Shown here one piece after another: positions 11,147 to 61,457 of a DNA stretch of 64,000 nt. Both the position numbers and the translations under genes were made by a program. Position 1 is the first letter of the stretch. The number at the start of each line of letters is the position of its first letter. The notes beneath the pieces are model-generated. The model saw nothing but the letters and a program-made list of their open reading frames with translations. It did no database searches and had not been told where the DNA came from. Origin of the DNA: Octopus vulgaris (lineage: Eukaryota); assembly GCA_951406725.2 (NCBI GenBank), contig OX597843.1:10416001-10480000 (forward strand), written 5' to 3'.

Positions 11147-12840
11147 TATTGTTGTTGGCATCCTTTTTGTCTCGGGAGACAATGGAGTGGCGCATAAAAT
11201 AATCTTGTCCGGCTTTTACATTTCATGTCCTAATACATCTCTTGCTGTGGCTGTGTAGTCCTATCCGGGACAAACACTCCCTCTGGCAGGTGCCGTAAAT
11301 GTAGCGAAGACTTTGCCTGACTGGTTGTAATGTCATAGTTTCTTGTTGACGTATTTTCTTGTCTTTCCATTTCTCCTTTCTCACTATGTCACTCCTTTGT
11401 GTTCCCTCTTTCACGGTACGTCGCCAATCTCCACGGTTGCTGGCAACTGCTTCCCAGTTGGTAATATTGATGTTGTAGGCATTCATGTCCCTTTTGCAAA
11501 CATCCTTGTATCGTAAGAACGGTCTTCCCACAGACCTAGTGCCCCTAGCAAGCTCTCCGTTGAGTATGTCCTTGGGGATTCTGCCATCTTCCATACGGCT
11601 AACATGTCCAAGCCATCTCATACGTCTTTGTGTGAAGAGTGCAAACATGCTTGGTATTCCTGCTTGCTTGAGGACATCTTTGTTAGGGACATGATTCTGC
11701 CATTTGATGCGATGGATTTTCCGGAGACAGCGCAGGTGAAAGATATTTAGGCGACGTATGGCGTCGTATGGCGTCGTATGGCGTGTGTATGGCGTCAAAG
11801 TCATACAGTAGAGTGCTAAGTACACATGCCTAGTAAATCTTCATTTTTGTGGTCTTGGTCAGCTTATTGTTGTCCCATGCGCGTTTGGTGAGTTGGGCCA
11901 TCACAGCAGCTGCCTTGCCAATGCGTATATTGAGCTCAGCATCAAGGGATAGGTTGTAGGTGACGGTAGAGCCAAGATAGGTAAACTTCTCCACCTCCTA
12001 TGATCTGTGGTTTCCAATATGTATGTTTGGGATGTCCGATGTAGCCTGACCCATGATGTTGGTCTTCTTGAGGCTGATAACTAAGCCAAAGTTGCCAAAT
12101 GCTTGCTCAAAACAGTTGCTGTGCCTTCGTAGGGCTTCTTCTGTGTGTGATACCAGAGCGGCATCATCAGCAAATAGCATCTCCTTGATCAGGATCCTTC
12201 TGAAATTTTGGTCTTGGCACGCAGACGCGAGAGATTGAACAGTTCCCCATCACTTCTACTGTGCAGAAACACTCCATCATCTGATGTCTCAAAGGCATGT
12301 GACAGCAGCAGCGTGAAGAAGATGCCAAATAATGTAGGAGCAAGGACACAACATTGCTCTACCCCATTTTTTATTTGGAAGGCGGCTGATGTTGAACCAT
12401 TGTGCTGTATGGTGCCTTGCATATTAGCATGGAATGATTTTATGATCCTCAGCAGCTTTGGTGGACATCCGATTTTTTGGAGCAGGATGAAGAGGCCTTT
12501 TCTACTTACCAAGTCAAAGCCCTTTGTCAGATCAATGAAGGCCATATATAATGGCATGTTCTGCTCTCTGGACTTCTGAAGTTGGCGTATGGAGAATATC
12601 ATGTCAATAGTTGATCTGCTTCTAAAGCCACACTGCGATTCTGGATAAATTCGAGAAGCAATTAGTTGCAGCCTGGACAGGATAATGCAAGCAGAGGCCA
12701 TTCCAACTGTGCTTAGAAGAGATATTCCACGGTAATTGTTACAATCATCACGGTCACTTTTATTTTTGTAAAGCGTAATGATGTTAGCATCCCGCATATT
12801 CTGAGGGACTGTACCCTCTTACCTGCACTGACACAGAAGT
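11147..12840 (-). pseudogene. Decayed, 5'-truncated RTE-clade LINE (RT and C-terminal region)
   Basis: Frameshifted pieces: MRDANIITLYKNK..NNYRGISLLS, PESQCGFR, FIDLTKGFD, MLFADDAAL, WLGHVSRMEDGRIPKDIL, SRIGLHSH; short 3' UTR with hairpin and CAA-repeat tail. Confidence 0.92.
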
Positions 12841-30290: not shown

Positions 30291-31702
30291 ATGTCTTTGG
30301 AAGGCAGTGAATGCAAACTGGAAGGAAAATTCGAAATGGATTTCCCCATTACCTATTCACCCATCTCAGGTGATGAAGAATCTCAAACCTCGGGTGAGAG
30401 AAGCACGCCGGCGGTGACACCGGAAAAAGAATCGGCGGTAACGCCAGGACAAAAGGCCCCAACAAAGAAGTTTGCGGAAGTTGTTGGACGCAAACAAAAA
30501 AATATAGATATAGAAAACCTAGAGAAATATGAAGACCTTCTAAAGAAAGAAGGAAATGAAATTGCAGTGAAAAAAGATATGGAAAAAAAGGAAGAGATAG
30601 AAAATAAAAGAATTATATACAAGACATACAGCATGACTACAAAAAGCATACAAAAAGTGGAAGAATGCAAAATAGAGGAGTGCCTGAAGACAATCAGAAA
30701 AGATATCACTTATATAAACAGAGGAAGGCGGTTCGGAACAGTAGAAGTGAGGTTCAGAACCGAAGAAATAGCTAAGAAGCTATCCACAGAACCTCAGAAA
30801 GCGGGAAATCTAGTCCTTCTACCCTTGTACAAAGGAAGAAGGACTTCAAAGATAGTAATGAGAAATATTCCCCCAGAGGCAGACGCCTCATGCCTGGTGG
30901 CGGCAGTGATGCTGGGCCTGAAAGAAAAATCAACATCCTCCAAGCTACAGTGGAGGAGGAGGGATTTTGGCAGGGCCAGATCATAACAATGGCTATACAA
31001 GCAGAGGCCCAGACTCTGGAAGAAATACCAGAGGTGCTGAGGCTAGATGAGGAGGAGCGAGTTCTAGTATTTGTAGAAGGAAGAAAACCGAGGTGCTTCG
31101 GCTGCGGAAAGAAGGGGCACGTGAGAGCGGAGTGTCAACCAAAACCGCAGGTAGAAGAACCGTCGGAGAAAGAAGAAACGGAGGAAAAAAAGGAAACCAA
31201 AGAGGTGGAAAAAGCTGCAGAAAAGGAAAAAGAAAACGAAAAAGAGGAGGGGTGGTCTAAAGTTACCAAAAAAAAACGGAAAACTGAAACCACCCCTCAA
31301 GAAGAAGAAAACCTAAAGAAAAGGAAAGAGGTTACTTCTTCATTTATGGCCATTAAGGCTACTAACAACAGACTTGTCAATGTGTTGGCAGCCATGGCCA
31401 AGGTGGAACGTATAAGGAAGATGAAAGACTTCATCATATATAAAATAGGCCGGAAGGACTACAGGAGGATAAAATCCGAGTTCTTCCACGACGTGGGCCC
31501 TCTGAGACTGGACATGTCTCCATATCTATACGAGGGCCTACGTCGGACTCCCCCACGAGCCAAAGAAAAAAAAATGAAGAAGAAGGCGAAACCGCCGAAA
31601 AAGCCAAACTACCGATATAAGGTAAGTGATGAACTACATTTGTGTTGGTTGTTTAAATGTGCGCGGCCTGGGATCAAGCGGGAAGCAAGGTCGCTTCCTT
31701 AA
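30291..31702 (+). CDS. ORF1 copy 4 (one -1 A frameshift near 30929)
   Basis: Homologous to copy 1 ORF1. Confidence 0.8.
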
Positions 31703-34700
31703 TGATATCAGGTCGCGCAATTTGGATGTTATTGTTGCTACAGAAACCCGGTTAAAGGGGCCAAGAGATCTACTCCCACTGTTTGACGGCTACGAGAGTT
31801 TTTTCTCTCCTGGCAGTCCTGCAGGCGGGAGTGGGGTGTTGGTCCTACTAAAAAGAAACCGGGTTTTTGAGAAAAAGTTAATTTTTTCAGACCCAGAAGG
31901 TAGGCTGGTCGTCATGGATTTGACGTTCAGTAACGGTAAAGTTATCAGACTGGTTGCAATTTACGCACCCTGCAGTAATAATGGGCAAAGTGATTATTAT
32001 CGTGATCTAGAGAACTTTCTCGGTACTTCGCATTCAATAGTTGTGCTAGGAGACTTTAACACAATTTGCAAAGCGGATGTAGATTGTGTTGGCTCGAATG
32101 ATAGAAAAGGTAACACATGCTTCCTGGAACTGCTAAGCCGCTTTGAGCTAGCAGATCCTTATAGGTTGGAATTTCCGAACGCTCCATTGTGGACATGGTC
32201 AAACAGCGACGGATCTTCCAGGTCATACATAGATAGAATTCTAATTAGAAAGGTAGACAGTAAAATAGCTAAGCGTCCACAGTTTTACCCGATCAGCTAC
32301 AGTGATCATAAAATGGTCACTTGTAAGCTTGACATAGATAAGGTTAGAAAGAGAGGATCCGGTTACTGGAAACTTAATACGTCCCTTTTGGCGATTAAGG
32401 AGTACAGAGACCGGATTAGGACCATAATTCAGAGGGCGCTGTCTGGTGCCATCATTAATAACAAATGGTGGTACGCCCTCAAACGAGCCATCAAGTTTGA
32501 GTCTATTAGATATAGCATAGGAGTAGTGTCTAGAGAGGCTAGAAGGGAAACTACTCTAGTTAAGGAATTAGAGGAAGCCATGAAAACTGGCTCTGCGGCT
32601 CAGGTGGCGTCCAAGAGACTGGTGTTAAACCAGCACCTCGAGGCCAAACACATGGGTTGCATTGTCAGGGCTAGAATCCGTCATATGGGATGTGAAGGAA
32701 TCAACGCCGTGAGATGGGCCCGAGTGGTGGAAGCCCGGAATGGCAACGATGCCACGATTCGATCTTTGAAGAACCAACAAGGTGAGTTGATAGACGAACC
32801 CGAGGAGATGTGTGAGGCCTTTCAGGAGCACTTCGCTCAGCTTTTCGGTGAGTGCGGCGGGCTGGATAGGAGGAGGGCCTTTACGGACCTACTCGACGGG
32901 CTGCCGCGCTTATCGGGGCGAGATGCGGAGGGCTGTGAAGGGCCAATCACGCCTGAGGAGGTGGTGGAGGCAATGGCGGACTGCGGCGCGGGCAAGGCGC
33001 CGGGTTTGGATGGTCTACCCTACGAGTTATATAAGAATATGCCAGACTTGTTCGGGCACCTACTGGCGGAAGTCTATGCGAACTGGCAGCAGAACGGGTT
33101 GATACCCAGATCTGTGCGCCGGGGAGTGGTGACTCTCGTCAGAAAGGACCCGAGCAAGGGGGAGTGCATTGATAATTTCAGGCCCATCACTCTGCTAAAC
33201 ACAGAGTTGAAGATTTTGGCCAAAGTGTTATCGAAAAGATTGGCGCGTGTCGCGGATGGTCTGATCGGGGAGGCACAGACATGTGCCGTTCCGGGCAGAA
33301 CCATTCAGGATAATCTCCATCTAATGCGGTACACTATAGAGGGGTTTAATAGTGATTCTGGCAAGGGTGGGGCACTGGTCCATTTAGACCAATCCAAAGC
33401 TTTTGATAGGGTCGACCATCGTTACCTGGTGTCTGCTCTGGCACAGTTCGGGCTGGGCCTTGGCTTCCTCAGGTGGATTATCCAAATTTACGACAACATC
33501 GACTCGGTAGTTCGGGTGAACGGCTTCTTGTCGAAGCCGTTCAAAATCAAACGCTCGGTTCGTCAAGGGTGTCCGCTCTCCCCGCTTTTGTACGTGATGG
33601 CTCTTGAGCCATTACTGCGAAAACTGAGCGGCATCCCGAGACAGCCAGGTAATGGAAAATCAGTGTCAGCGTACGCGGACGACATCACCATCATCGTGAC
33701 CGAAATGGACCACCTATGTAAAGTAGGCAAGGCCATAGAGGATTACGAGACGGTGACAGGAGCAAAAGTTAATCGCGAAAAGTCAGTCGGCTTGCAACTC
33801 GGCACCTGGAGAGGCAAGTCGATGCCTCCTGACAGCGTCGTGGGACGTTGGACGGAGGGTCCGATTAAACTGCTAGGGGTCTGGTTCGGTCCAGACCTCC
33901 AAATAGAGAAGAATTGGGGCGAGGTAACGAGCAAGGTGGCTGCAGTAGCCAAGACCTGGTCTAGGCGGTGGCTATCCTTGAAAGGGAGGGCGGAGGTGGC
34001 CAATGTGTTTATCGCATCGGTTATCATCTACCGCCTTTCCGTCGTTCCATGCCCTGATTCGTGGTTGACCAAGTTGGAAAGACAGCTCTTCTACTTCCTG
34101 TGGAAGGGCAGGAAACCACTTGTGAAACGCTCTACTTGCTGTCAACAACCGTTAAAGGGTGGGCTAGGGATGCCTTGGCTGATGATGCGCAGACATGCGC
34201 TGAGGTTAAGACATCTGTGGCTCTACCTGGATGGTGAACGGGTGTGGTCTCCGTTAGCAAAACTGATGTTTCCCAAGTTCACTAGTTTCGGTGGATGGGA
34301 AACCTGGTTGAATCGTAGATCGAAACTCGGTACATGGTATACGGAGTGTCGAAAGGCCCTCCTGCTATTCCGTCGCTCGGGCAACGCCTGCGGTGGGGGT
34401 TCCACCACATTCTTCTATAGAGGGTTGGTAGAGGCGGAATGTGAAGACACCTTGGGGGAAACCCTGGGTCTCGACGATAATCAGCTGGCTAGTCTGTTCC
34501 GACGTACGTTCGGGCCGAAGACTCTGGACAACTTCCAGAAGTCTCTGGCATGGCAATGCTACAGAGGAGCTCTACCTGTTCGGGATAAACTCGCAAGGCA
34601 CGGTGGCCAAGACAGTCCGATGTGTCCAAGATGCGGGCGGGATAGGGAAACCGTCCCGCACGCTATTGTTCATTGTTCGGACGTGTCTGAGGTGTGGGTT

Positions 34701-35024
34701 TATGCCGAACAGCTGTTGTCAAGCACACGAAGAGTACAGCTGTCGACTGAGTGTATTAAAAAAATTGACCCACCAGATTTCCTCGCGAAAGAAGGTAAGA
34801 CTTGTTTTCTCGTTGTGGTAGCAATTGCGAAGGAGGTGATATGGAAGACGAGAATGAAAGGTATACGGTCAGGCAAGTTCATATCCGGCCCTGGGTTGAT
34901 GAACTACTTCATCTACCACCTGAAAAGGAAGATAGGGCTGGAGAGAAAATGCCTGACTAAAAGAGTGTATGAAGAACGATGGAAGGATGTAGCACGGAAG
35001 TTGAGAATGGATGACACCATATAA
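31629..35024 (+). CDS. ORF2 APE-RT-CCHC, intact
   Basis: Uninterrupted ORF with all catalytic motifs. Confidence 0.97.
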   Translation: MNYICVGCLNVRGLGSSGKQGRFLNDIRSRNLDVIVATETRLKGPRDLLPLFDGYESFFSPGSPAGGSGVLVLLKRNRVFEKKLIFSDPEGRLVVMDLTFSNGKVIRLVAIYAPCSNNGQSDYYRDLENFLGTSHSIVVLGDFNTICKADVDCVGSNDRKGNTCFLELLSRFELADPYRLEFPNAPLWTWSNSDGSSRSYIDRILIRKVDSKIAKRPQFYPISYSDHKMVTCKLDIDKVRKRGSGYWKLNTSLLAIKEYRDRIRTIIQRALSGAIINNKWWYALKRAIKFESIRYSIGVVSREARRETTLVKELEEAMKTGSAAQVASKRLVLNQHLEAKHMGCIVRARIRHMGCEGINAVRWARVVEARNGNDATIRSLKNQQGELIDEPEEMCEAFQEHFAQLFGECGGLDRRRAFTDLLDGLPRLSGRDAEGCEGPITPEEVVEAMADCGAGKAPGLDGLPYELYKNMPDLFGHLLAEVYANWQQNGLIPRSVRRGVVTLVRKDPSKGECIDNFRPITLLNTELKILAKVLSKRLARVADGLIGEAQTCAVPGRTIQDNLHLMRYTIEGFNSDSGKGGALVHLDQSKAFDRVDHRYLVSALAQFGLGLGFLRWIIQIYDNIDSVVRVNGFLSKPFKIKRSVRQGCPLSPLLYVMALEPLLRKLSGIPRQPGNGKSVSAYADDITIIVTEMDHLCKVGKAIEDYETVTGAKVNREKSVGLQLGTWRGKSMPPDSVVGRWTEGPIKLLGVWFGPDLQIEKNWGEVTSKVAAVAKTWSRRWLSLKGRAEVANVFIASVIIYRLSVVPCPDSWLTKLERQLFYFLWKGRKPLVKRSTCCQQPLKGGLGMPWLMMRRHALRLRHLWLYLDGERVWSPLAKLMFPKFTSFGGWETWLNRRSKLGTWYTECRKALLLFRRSGNACGGGSTTFFYRGLVEAECEDTLGETLGLDDNQLASLFRRTFGPKTLDNFQKSLAWQCYRGALPVRDKLARHGGQDSPMCPRCGRDRETVPHAIVHCSDVSEVWVYAEQLLSSTRRVQLSTECIKKIDPPDFLAKEGKTCFLVVVAIAKEVIWKTRMKGIRSGKFISGPGLMNYFIYHLKRKIGLERKCLTKRVYEERWKDVARKLRMDDTI

Positions 35025-35468
35025 ATGTAGATCAAAACGAAACCAAAAGTATCAGTGGTGAGGCGGGGCTCGTGGGGTCCGAGCTGAACCCGCCCCCACT
35101 CCACCTGTAGTGTCTTCCGGTCTGTTTTTTCTCATTCGATTTTTATAATTTTTGCAATTTTTGTAAATTTTTGAAATTTTTAAACTCATACTTTTGTAAC
35201 CTCATACGTGAATCTGACCCCACATCAGGTTGTATTGTCCCCTCTTTGTTGGCCCCTTGTGGGTAATAATAAAAGAAAATCACCATATAGTGCCTTACTG
35301 CTTTCTGCTGGATTTTACCTCGAGATAGGAACCCTGAGGAAGGAGGGCTGAATTTCGAATACTTCGTACAACAAACGGCTGCAGGTTAGGAAAAAAAATT
35401 TAATCGCCTCTTTCAATTTAGGTTTTTATTTTTCATGCTTATATTCGTATTTCATTGTTATGTTTATA

Positions 35469-36041
35469 TTGGGTTGTCCGGAAAGTTCGTTCCGATTTTT
35501 AAAGGAAAGTACATGGTCACTAAATACTTGCCATTACATTTTTAATGAACCAAATCTAAACCATTTCGTTGCACAATACGTCTCCATCTTACATTTACCT
35601 TAAAATACCCTCTTCCCAGAATTGGGGTGGTTTCAAGGCAAATAATTCATCAAGGTATCTTTTTACGTCATCTAAGGAATTGAAATTTTCACCATTAAGA
35701 CTATTCTGCAGAGACCTGAATAAGTGGAAATCCGAAGGAGTAATATCTGGTGAATATGGAGGGTGGGGTAAGTCACCCCAGCCAAAGCTGCAGCAATTTT
35801 TGTCTGGTTCCCAAAGCATCAAATGCCGATAATGAATTTTTCTCATCTTTTAATTTAAAGGGTTACAGAATTAACACAGGTTATTGGAACATAAACCTTC
35901 TTCCACGAAAAGATAGATTAAACTGTGCTCCAAATGGAGGTGTAGTCAAATCCTATTTTATGGACTCAAACATGTTCTAAAATAAGTCGAAAGATAAGCT
36001 ACTATAAATCTGCAAGAACTTTCCCTTGATGACAAACCCAA
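35469..36041 (-). mobile_element. Internally deleted mariner element
   Basis: Imperfect TIRs (TTGGGTTGTC..GGAAAGTTC) flanked by TA; residual transposase HPPYSPDITPSDFHLFRSLQN. Confidence 0.85.
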
Positions 36042-42894: not shown

Positions 42895-43182
42895 CTAACT
42901 TAATAGCATCACCCGGTGAAGTCTTTTAGTCATATATGGGGCACCAATGGCCCGCTCTAGCAAAGAGTTATTATTGTTGGAGAGATATCCGGGTGTAGGG
43001 GGTTGGTCCGGGATTTTTTGAAGAAATTTGTCTAGTAAACATTTGAATTTTATGGGATCCGTTTCCATTTTGACGTGTTTTGGTATGGTCTTAAAGAGAG
43101 CTGGATTGGTTGAGGTAAAGTAATTGTGACGTAATGTGTCCTGAGTTTGCTTTTTGTAGTGGGCATATAGCACAGGGGCCAA
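42895..43182 (-). pseudogene. 3' fragment of a CR1-group LINE ORF2
   Basis: PALFKTIPKHVK...FKCLLDKFLQKIPDQPPTPGY resembles the C-terminus of invertebrate CR1-type RT proteins. Confidence 0.6.
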
Positions 43183-43196
43183 GATATATATATGTG

Positions 43197-43676
43197 TTTG
43201 AGGTTTTTAAGCAGATAAGGCCGAAAACGTCGCTAGAAGCTAGGATCACCAAGCATAGATTGGCATATTTCAGCCATATTATGCGGAGAGAATCCCTGGA
43301 GAAGGACATAATGCTCGGAATGGTCAGTAGCAAGAGAGGAAGAGGCCGACAAAGAACCCGCTGGCTTGACACCATCAGGAGTGATACCGGAATGGACATG
43401 GCCAGTCTGAAGGAAGCGGCCGAGGATAGAACCGACTGGAGGACATTGATCCAACGAGTGACTGAGAGTCGACTTCGACTGAGCGGATATATATATTTAT
43501 ACGGAATGGTCAGTGGCAAGAGAGGAAGAGGCCGACCAAGAACCCACTGGCGTGACACCATCAGGAGTGATACCGGAATGGACATGGCCAATCTGAAAGA
43601 AGCGGCCCAGGATAGAACTGACTGGAGGACATTGATCCAACGAGTGACCGAGAGTCGACTTCGACTGAGCGGATAG
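43197..43676 (+). pseudogene. RTE/BovB-like LINE 3' fragment with a duplicated terminal ~175 bp
   Basis: LAYFSHIMRRESLEKDIMLGMVSSKRGRGRQRTRWLD...WRTLIQRVTESRLRLS; the last part is present twice. Confidence 0.85.
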
Positions 43677-45765: not shown

Positions 45766-46170
45766 TGCTGGTAGAAACGTTAGCACGCTGGGCGAAATGC
45801 GTAGCCGTATTTCGTCTGTCGTTACGTTGTGAGTTCAAATTCCGCCAAGGCCGACTTTGCCTTTCATCCTTTCGGGGTCGATAAATAAAGTACCAGTTAT
45901 GCACTGCGGTCGATGTAAACGACTTAATCCCTTTGTCTGTCCTTGTTTGTCCCCTCTGTGTTTAGCCCCTTGTGGGTAGTAAAGAAATAGGTATTTCGTC
46001 TGCCGTTACGTTCTGAGTTCAAATTCTGCCGAGGTTGACTTTGCCTTTTCATCCTTTCGGGGTCGATAAATAAAGTACCAGTTATGCACTGGGGGTCGAT
46101 GTAAACGACTTAATCCCTTTGTCTGTCCTTGTTTGTCCCCTCCATGCTTAGCCCCTTATGGGCAATAAAG

Positions 46171-59576: not shown

Positions 59577-59795
59577 ACTCTCTTACTCTTCTACTCTTTT
59601 ACTTGTTTCAGTCATTTGACTGCGGCCATACTGGAGCACCGCCTTTAGTCGAGCAACTCGACCCCTGGACTTATTCTTTTGTAAGCCCAGTACTTATTCT
59701 ACCGGTCTCTTTTGCCGAACCGCTAAGTAACAGGGACATAAACACACCAGCATCGGTTGTCATGCAATGCTAGGGGGACAAACACAGACACACAA

Positions 59796-59982: not shown

Positions 59983-60103
59983 ACCTAGCATTGTCTCGCA
60001 GCACACCAGTGTGCCACAGCATGCTGGTTGTGGAGCACTGTTCTATTAGAGCCACTGTGTCACCACACAAACAATTAGCTCCCACAATGACTATTATAAC
60101 TAA

Positions 60104-60535
60104 TATTCTTTTCTACTCTAGGCACAAGGCCCGAAATTTTGGGGGAGAGGGCCAATCGATTAAATTGACCCCAGTATACAACTGCTACTTAATTTATCGA
60201 CCCTGAAAGGATGAAAGTTGACGTCTGTGGAATTTGAACTCAGAACGTAAAGACAGACGAAATACCGCTAAGCATTTTGCCCGACGTGCTAACGTTTCTG
60301 CCAGCTCACCGTCTACATATTCTTCTCTACTCTAGGTACCAGGCTTGAAATTTTGGGGGAGTGGGCCCAGTAGATTAGATCAATCCCAGTACACAACTGG
60401 TACTTAATTTATCGTCCCTGAAAAGATAAAAAGCAAAGTCGACCTCGGCAGAATTTGAACTCAGAATGTAAAGACAGATGAAATACCACTAAGTATTTTG
60501 CCCAGTGTGCTAACGTTTCTGCCACCTTGCCGCCT
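60104..60535 (-). mobile_element. Two tandem copies of a SINE type B variant with an alternative tail
   Basis: Same head and central domain as type B; tail CCCCCAAAATTTCGGGCCTTGTGCCTAGAGTAGAAAAGAATA. Confidence 0.8.
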
Positions 60536-61457
60536 TTATTCTGGCTCAAGGCTGGAAATTTTGGGGGAAGAGGCCAGTTGGCGGAATAACTACTATATTA
60601 ACTAGTAACTACTGGAGCTCCTACTACTAACTATTCTAGTCTCCACAACTGCAACTACCACTACATAAATATTTAGCTACCATAATAACTATTATAACAA
60701 GTATTAACTATTAAAAGTACAACAATAAATATCATTCCGTCTACCAAATCCACTCACAAGGCTTTCGTCGGTCCGAGGCTATAGCAGAAGACACTTGCGC
60801 AAGGTGCCACGCAGTGGGACTGCACCCAGAACCATGTGGTTGGTAAGCAAGCTACTTGCCACACAGCCACTCCTGCGCCTGTGTTATTCATTTATATTAT
60901 GAGAGATAGATAAATAGATATGTATATGTCTTAATGATGGGCTTCAACCAAATCCACGGTCAATTTGCTCAAGGTGCCACGCAGTGGGACTGAACCCGGA
61001 ACCATGTGGTTGGTAAGCAAGGTACTTACCACACAGCCACTCCTGCGCCTATATATGATTGTTATCGTAATCATTAGCATTTTAAGTCCATTTCTCGCAT
61101 GTCAGTTGTTTCTTGTCGGGTTATCAAATGTAAAGTTTCCCTTTCTAGGCATTGGTTAATCCATCACTATGGTACAAGACAGTTGCCAAGGTGTCCCACA
61201 GCGGAATCCTACGGGGAGGCCTGCGGTTGCAAAGCAAGATTGTTAATCACACAGCAAGGCTTAAATGCCGAGAGCACAAACGATTGCTGCTAAACCAATA
61301 CAACTGAGACGTGGTAAACATCGACTGACATTTCTTGTTAATTGACAAGAGACAACGTACTTGCAGCTATAATAATAACACACGACAGGAGATGAAACCC
61401 CACAAGAAATGGTGATATTTCTAGATGCCAGTCACACACACACACTCACACTCATAT

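Follow-up and report, generated by a model that had tools for sequence, protein, structure and literature searches.

The window, a 64,000-nt stretch of the Octopus vulgaris genome (G000:C30:10416001-10480000; genome searched, 2.8 Gb), holds a head-to-tail array of LINE units, copies of SINE B and a variant SINE with a different tail, termed here the C tail (Table 1). The ORF2 of the last LINE unit encodes 1132 aa with AP endonuclease (PF03372), RT (PF00078) and zf-RVT (PF13966) domains, and its best PDB match, the nearest among solved structures, is human L1 ORF2p (E 3.5e-71). With an AP endonuclease, an RT, a C-terminal zinc domain and L1 ORF2p as nearest match, the LINE belongs to the L1 clade. 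We take it to be presumably Tx1-like. LINE and SINE B share one terminal motif, which has 11 matches in the window at ≤2 mismatches (0.96 expected). At 8 other loci the 3′ flank of the array (window 35283-35520) recurs, either adjoining a Tx1 tail or at most 60 nt behind it; it also recurs at L287 and L295, with no visible tail there, and appears to be a shared target repeat.

Table 1. Positions and strands of the elements and motifs in the window.
Feature	Position	Strand
Five-unit head-to-tail LINE array (L1 clade, presumably Tx1-like; unit 1 5′-truncated): ORF2 of last unit	31626..35024	+
LINE hairpin GCCC-CTTGT-GGGT and AATAATAAAAGAAAA end	35252..35279 (hairpin 35252-35264)	+
Identical LINE hairpin in other array units	14146, 19423, 24700, 29976	
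SINE B tail, GCCC-CTTGT-GGGT plus AGTAAAGAAAT	45965..45988	+
Further SINE B tails	8736, 39182 (-), 46151, 49362	
Variant SINE (C1 subfamily), made up of a head in which A/B-box-like motifs were seen by eye, the shared body and a C-type tail that ends in GAAAAG	60108..60310	-
Its terminal hairpin: GGGC (60132-60129), CTTGT (60128-60124), GCCT (60123-60120); pairs G-U, G-C, G-C, C-G	60120..60132	-
6-nt spacer AGAGTA (AATAAA position of LINE-type tails) and GAAAAG terminus	60108..60119	-
AATATT, probably target site and not element; begins the duplication in other C1 copies	60102..60107	-
Second, tandem C1 copy; decayed stem AAGC-CTGGT-ACCT (60346-60334)	60322..60534	-
Third C-type fragment, tail only; decayed stem CAGC/GCCA near 60550	60541..60575	-
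3′ part of another abundant SINE (GGCGGTGC..CAGCATGGCC.CAG)	59600-59645	-
RTE-like remnants (two elements) and a CR1-like 3′ end	11412-12839 (-), 43200-43660 (+), 42946-43137 (-)	

The variant element is about 200 nt long, non-coding and multi-copy, with copies flanked by target-site duplications (TSDs), and is thus a SINE. Its head has no tRNA match in Rfam at E ≤10. An identity with MetaSINEs was considered and dropped: by eye the body is unlike the BivaMeta/BivaMD alignments, and its words are absent from the accessible part of the published alignment supplement. The end of the element was set from the TSDs of other C1 copies; the window copy itself yielded no TSD. By eye, the window's other abundant SINE is similar in its 3′ part to a CR1-like 3′ end (L059, about 480-520), whose LINE is a candidate partner for it.

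The first-pass annotation had read the two hairpins of LINE/SINE B and variant SINE correctly, in letters and in coordinates. Within the window, the variant 13-mer is not above chance, with 2 matches against 0.83 expected and 19 of 100 shuffles reaching 2. Among 181 CTTGT sites, 19 are flanked by a stem of at least 4 pairs, and 10 of those 19 are by eye unrelated to these tails. The hairpin is part of the MFE structure, yet with z = 0.43 single-sequence folding does no better than shuffles. Since the variant 13-mer is within chance in the window, the fold equals shuffles and the neighbouring copies are decayed, the case rests on the genome.

A pattern that fixes the flanks and loop of the C tail and leaves all four pairs free has at least 30,710 matches in the genome and 0 in the control. 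By eye, the first 100 listed of these 30,710 comprise the main C-class stems TGGC/GCCA (31, of which 20 lie in four tandem arrays), GGGC/GCCT (13) and AGGC/GCCT (9), as well as 2 TGCC/GGCA and 45 others, mostly single changes. The paired changes belong to the family consensus, GGGC-CTTGT-GCCT, and the exact 13-mer is kept in 20 of 30 top genome matches (by eye; query-selected). A 400 kb sample taken at fixed positions holds 62 SINE bodies; about two-thirds of them have the B tail, and the majority of the rest carry a distinct, C-rich one. Three C subfamilies are told apart by their spacers: AGAGTA in C1, to which the window copy belongs, ATAGTA in C2 and AAATTT in C3. Among 38 C copies selected by context only, pairs 1 to 4 are intact in 29, 36, 34 and 33, respectively, and the CTTGT loop occurs in 21 of the 38, compared with 46 of 54 B tails. 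Pairwise identity averages 0.905 in B, 0.85 in C1 and 0.76-0.77 in C2/C3, by which C1 is the younger of the C subfamilies. One locus (L263 / L235, G000:C2:108628129) has a C2-type SINE with the spacer AATAAA, followed by GAAAGG and ATT runs; this is the expected ancestral form, in a single occurrence. Arrays with a 115-nt period and a C3 tail (G000:C1:5375732-5405881, 5768411-5769015 and 7545269-7545528) form a SINE-derived satellite.

The same kind of hairpin is found at Tx1-type 3′ ends. A context search that left the stem free gave 163 genome matches (control 0), and 30 of these loci were fetched. Eighteen pair at all four positions, 17 of them with at least three Watson-Crick pairs, just before AATAAAGAAA; the 17 stand, against a mean of 5.2 in shuffles (sd 2.0, maximum 12 in 2000). 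The own 3′ arm pairs in 16 of 28 distinct tails, as opposed to 118 of 600 cross-swapped arms (20%). A search in which position 2 could not hold the B pair yielded 663 matches (control 7) with stems GGCC/GGCC, AGCC/GGCT, GGCC/GGCT and AACC/GGTT, and 8 of the 30 loci taken from this search have ORF2 upstream. Protein-based and random sampling added Tx1-like ends with GCCC-CTTGT-GGGT, GCCC-CTAGT-GGGT, AACC-CTTGT-GGTT, AACC-GTTGT-GGTT, ACCT-TTTTAT-AGGT, AATC-TCAT-GATT and AGAT-TATATA-ATCT, all of which precede an AATAAA-type end. The stems in evidence thus include TGGC/GCCA, AACC/GGTT, ACCT/AGGT, GAGC/GCTC, GGCC/GGCC, GCCC/GGGC and GGGC/GCCT. At three further Tx1-type ends (L031, L034, L225) the tail reads AGCC-CTGTGT-GGCC or AGCT-CTGT-GGCT and ATCT repeats come next; these ends may represent a second family targeting microsatellites.

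A MAFFT alignment of 14 tails with five-nt loops, hand-picked with their stems known, has 92.9% of its 56 cells paired and a covariation of 0.571 against 0.221 when shuffled (0/500), with both sides changing at pairs 2 and 3; two of the five measures, those based on numbers of pairs or on pair types, were no higher than in the shuffles of this alignment (300 and 227 of 500). All tail classes align gap-free through the hairpin and share one layout of stem-loop, 6 nt and GAAA. The stem-free search, the arm swaps and the covariation agree with the earlier claim that a terminal hairpin is kept by compensatory change. The claim that the same five-nt loop is kept does not extend to the clan: loops vary in letters and run from 4 to 7 nt, CUUGU is common and not required, and what is conserved is the position of the hairpin. 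These tails have the hallmark of the stringent type, namely a terminal hairpin maintained by compensatory changes and common to LINE and SINE.

From the comparison of tails, the hairpin likely functions as a cis-signal for RT. A less probable role, to which only a small chance is given, lies in another step, such as 3′-end formation near AATAAA, exonuclease protection or ORF1p binding. Such a role would suit the free loop sequence and the position of the hairpin, which lies directly 5′ of a canonical AATAAA in every LINE or ORF1-only family read. However, most SINE tails have lost AATAAA (they read AGTAAA, AGAGTA, ATAGTA or AAATTT) and have retained the hairpin, the spacing and GAAA through several master genes, and C1 insertions end without poly(A). 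SINE tails with the hairpin and its spacing and without AATAAA argue against a pure polyadenylation role.

The first-pass annotation had also predicted a second Tx1-like family bearing the GGGC/GCCT tail. The pattern GGCC-N2-3-GTGCC-N-AATAAAGAA has 124 genome matches (control 0), of which 100 were listed. Sequence was retrieved for 46 distinct matches, among them each of the 8 listed ones with a five-nt loop. Most of those retrieved are the 3′ ends of ORF1-only elements, with ORF1 homology and a CCHC knuckle upstream and no ORF2. The exact GGGC-CTTGT-GCCT plus AATAAAGAAA ends L277 and L280, and also L279, which is counted apart from the ORF1-only elements; L277 and L280 each have their own 13-nt TSD and are independent insertions. 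A GGGC-TTTAT-GCCT tail is present as well, and the GGGC-CTTTGT-GCCT matches L228 and L230-L233 have common flanks and were counted as one duplicated insertion. HAL1 elements are known for an ORF1 without ORF2, a LINE-type 3′ end and dispersed copies. L280, L277 and their relatives are HAL1-like in having ORF1, a 3′ UTR, no ORF2, dispersed copies and TSDs, L277 being 5′-truncated to its UTR and assigned to the ORF1-only family by DNA similarity.

The prediction thus holds for a Tx1-derived ORF1-only carrier and is not supported for an RT-bearing one: the exact variant stem is found in 0 of 70 RT-bearing ends, many of them from two young families, and the only end able to pair as GGC/GCC, across a loop of 6 nt, is L285 (1/70). 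Among 30 exact C2 tails, the preceding sequence is SINE in 29; in the remaining one (L194, G000:C1:108452176), the C2 tail is fused to the ORF2 end and 3′ UTR of Tx1. L194 was rejected as an RT-bearing C2 family, since in L109 this Tx1 family bears a different tail of its own; L194 is taken for a single chimera whose junction would derive from a template switch or a deletion.

How the stem changed can be partly retraced. The first-pass annotation described two inner pairs swapped together. The two stems do differ and still pair; a joint swap is unneeded given the one-pair intermediates GGCC/GGCC, AGCC/GGCT and GGCC/GGCT. At pair 3 the change may have been a register slip, with one substitution and a 1-nt loop deletion in place of a double substitution. 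An L240-type tail, GGCC-CTTGT-GGCT, would yield GGC-CCTTGT-GCC by one substitution, a form seen in L284 and L285, and an additional 1-nt deletion would give GGC-CTTGT-GCC. L212, with the stem GACC/GGCT and the end GAAA-ATATT, is probably a decayed GGCC/GGCT and would then be one pair away from C1. In C3, TGCC/GGCA stands alongside TGGC/GCCA, a second change at pair 3. The basal G-U that had been noted as shared is present in C1 and B; it is probably parallel and not inherited, because in C2, the older sister subfamily, the base is mostly A-U (8 CA, 2 TA, 0 CG and 0 TG of 11).

The origin of the C tail was sought among the LINE clades sampled, namely Tx1, CR1 and RTE. At p ≤0.01 the window C1 tail aligns to 10 of 23 Tx1 tails and 10 of 13 ORF1-only-type tails, many of these rows having been found by a pattern with the loop and AATAAAGAA; of 9 rows from protein or random sampling, only the window LINE reaches p ≤0.01. 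At the same threshold it aligns to none of 8 CR1 and none of 3 RTE tails. A CR1 or RTE origin was pursued through 40 loci from PF00078 and PF14529 matches, none with a C tail end; a search with the PF09004 profile found no match, and likewise none in its controls.

The C tail is probably homologous to the Tx1 tail. A descent from another LINE clade, unsampled or extinct, with the Tx1 likeness as convergence on a short hairpin and an A-rich end, is rather improbable. It would account for the shortness of the match and its weak scores in rows that came from protein or random sampling, for the distinct C-rich part upstream (CCCCAAAATTTC), unlike the T/G-rich Tx1 context, for the lack of an autonomous carrier among the 70 RT-bearing ends and for GGCC-containing tails in two CR1-like families. 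It is opposed by the equal stem-6 nt-GAAA spacing and loop, by the exact hairpin in Tx1-derived ORF1-only elements, by terminal letters and ATT context in common with Tx1, by the 0/11 CR1/RTE tails that match and by TSDs of 13-19 nt.

The terminal letters, which lie outside the search patterns, point to a partner branch. In old RT-bearing copies, the last letters before the ATT runs are GAAAGG, AAATC or GAAA, which match C2, C3 and C1, respectively: L209, L220 and L236 end GAAAGGAT, like C2; L064, L193 and L226 end AAATCATT, as do some C3 copies; and L212 ends GAAAATATT. By eye, ATT-type runs lie behind 13 of 16 LINE ends of the old branch and behind none of the 25 other Tx1 ends; among SINEs they follow 10 of 18 C2, 2 of 7 C3, 0 of 13 unselected C1 and 0 of 54 SINE B. 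In a tree of 28 short C-terminal fragments, the old copies stand apart from the young families with a support of 0.97; 5 of the 16 old copies (L212, L214, L226, L109, L031) are outside this tree and were grouped by their ends. On balance, C SINEs were probably mobilised by this older Tx1 branch (ends GAAA-GG/TC/CG before ATT runs) and not by the young family of the window. The link is weaker for C1, because it has no ATT runs and is younger.

For C1, insertion sites provide another line of evidence. TSDs, mostly 13-19 nt long, were found for 15 of 30 copies after removal of one head-repeat artefact. They start directly after GAAAAG in 14 cases and begin AATATT in 9 of 15, at loci selected by a query containing these letters; AATAT also lies 3′ of the unselected copies L040, L113, L139 and L148. 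For SINE B, in turn, the next letters are TAGG in 37 of 78 copies. In seven loci with C1 tails (L003, L004, L014, L015, L020, L022, L023), the TSD partner lies 340-440 nt upstream, and L004, L014 and L023 are B-plus-C1 dimers in which the B tail joins a head cut at an identical point.

That the insertion sites of B and C differ is an argument for a second enzyme. Alternatively, the tail could be Tx1-derived and C1 copied by an RT that it shares with SINE B, or by that of the ORF1-only family's partner; this enzyme would read loop and shape, with the stem letters ignored, and no second autonomous family would be needed. In zebrafish L2, stem-swapped tails still retrotranspose and loop swaps fail (PMC4176376). 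With a stem that is swappable as long as it pairs, an altered stem around an unchanged loop would in itself call for no second enzyme. A single RT would also fit the absence of ATT runs in C1 (0/13), the frequent occurrence of C1 in a B-plus-C1 dimer bounded by one TSD and the exact stem in ORF1-only tails that are like SINE B in the sequence upstream. Set against it are the C1 duplications that begin after GAAAAG, 9/15 with AATATT (query-selected), versus TAGG for SINE B, and sharing of one RT is considered unlikely.

Taken together, the variant is the tail of a SINE class that likely derives from a Tx1-like LINE 3′ end, its 4-bp hairpin being a putative RT template signal without poly(A). 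By analogy with established stringent LINEs, ORF2p would bind the terminal hairpin, and target-primed reverse transcription would start at the GAAA end.

The closest known case is that of ZmSINE2/3 and the L1-clade LINE1-1_ZM of maize and sorghum, which share a 3′ end of about 45-50 nt whose hairpin is kept by compensatory changes, with a variable stem and a conserved 3′ flank (PMC3472496, PMC3747384). The likeness lies in an L1-clade LINE and SINEs with a common hairpin 3′ end. The octopus system differs in its animal, Tx1-like lineage, its 4-bp stem, a loop not conserved clan-wide, the lack of poly(A) and a layout common to two SINE tail classes and ORF1-only passengers. L1-tailed SINEs are few, three among 58 pairs in one survey (PMC3472496). 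In ZfL2-1/ZfL2-2, the 3′ stem-loop is a cis-signal whose stem letters are exchangeable provided that pairing is maintained, and recognition is loop-specific (PMC4176376). ZfL2 belongs to the L2 clade and was tested experimentally, whereas the octopus tails are known by comparison alone and their loops vary. A Tx1 partner of a SINE was proposed for crocodilian Tx1-Mar/SINEU from a common target preference; SINEU has poly(A) and snRNA heads, and the available text mentions no stem-loop (Kojima 2015, PMC4494074). HAL1 (half-L1) is the name of non-autonomous LINEs with ORF1 (PMC5786205), and the octopus ORF1-only element differs in being Tx1-like-derived and ending in a hairpin tail. The portion seen of PMC13282606 gives Tx1 and mostly unclassified SINEs and names no partners. 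No description of this tail was found in the literature covered; Ohshima and Okada 1994 and Repbase-type libraries lie outside that coverage, so the SINE may already be named.

Stem-loop tails with compensatory changes were known already; the C tail class and its candidate partner branch are added here. They bear on the question, for which few examples exist, of whether the RT ancestral to the L1 clade read a structured tail and in what way this relaxed to poly(A). Tentatively, the animal Tx1 radiation, its ORF1-only passengers and the two SINE tail classes may use a minimal shape code (any 4-bp stem, a free loop, a 6-nt spacer, GAAA and no poly(A)), in which a SINE could have switched partner branch and target site by retuning its tail. 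If true, these tails would be a natural mutagenesis series for an L1-clade state intermediate between recognition by a specific loop and recognition by poly(A) only. With an intact young ORF2 and more than 10 natural stem and loop variants in the octopus genome, the recognition rule is directly testable.
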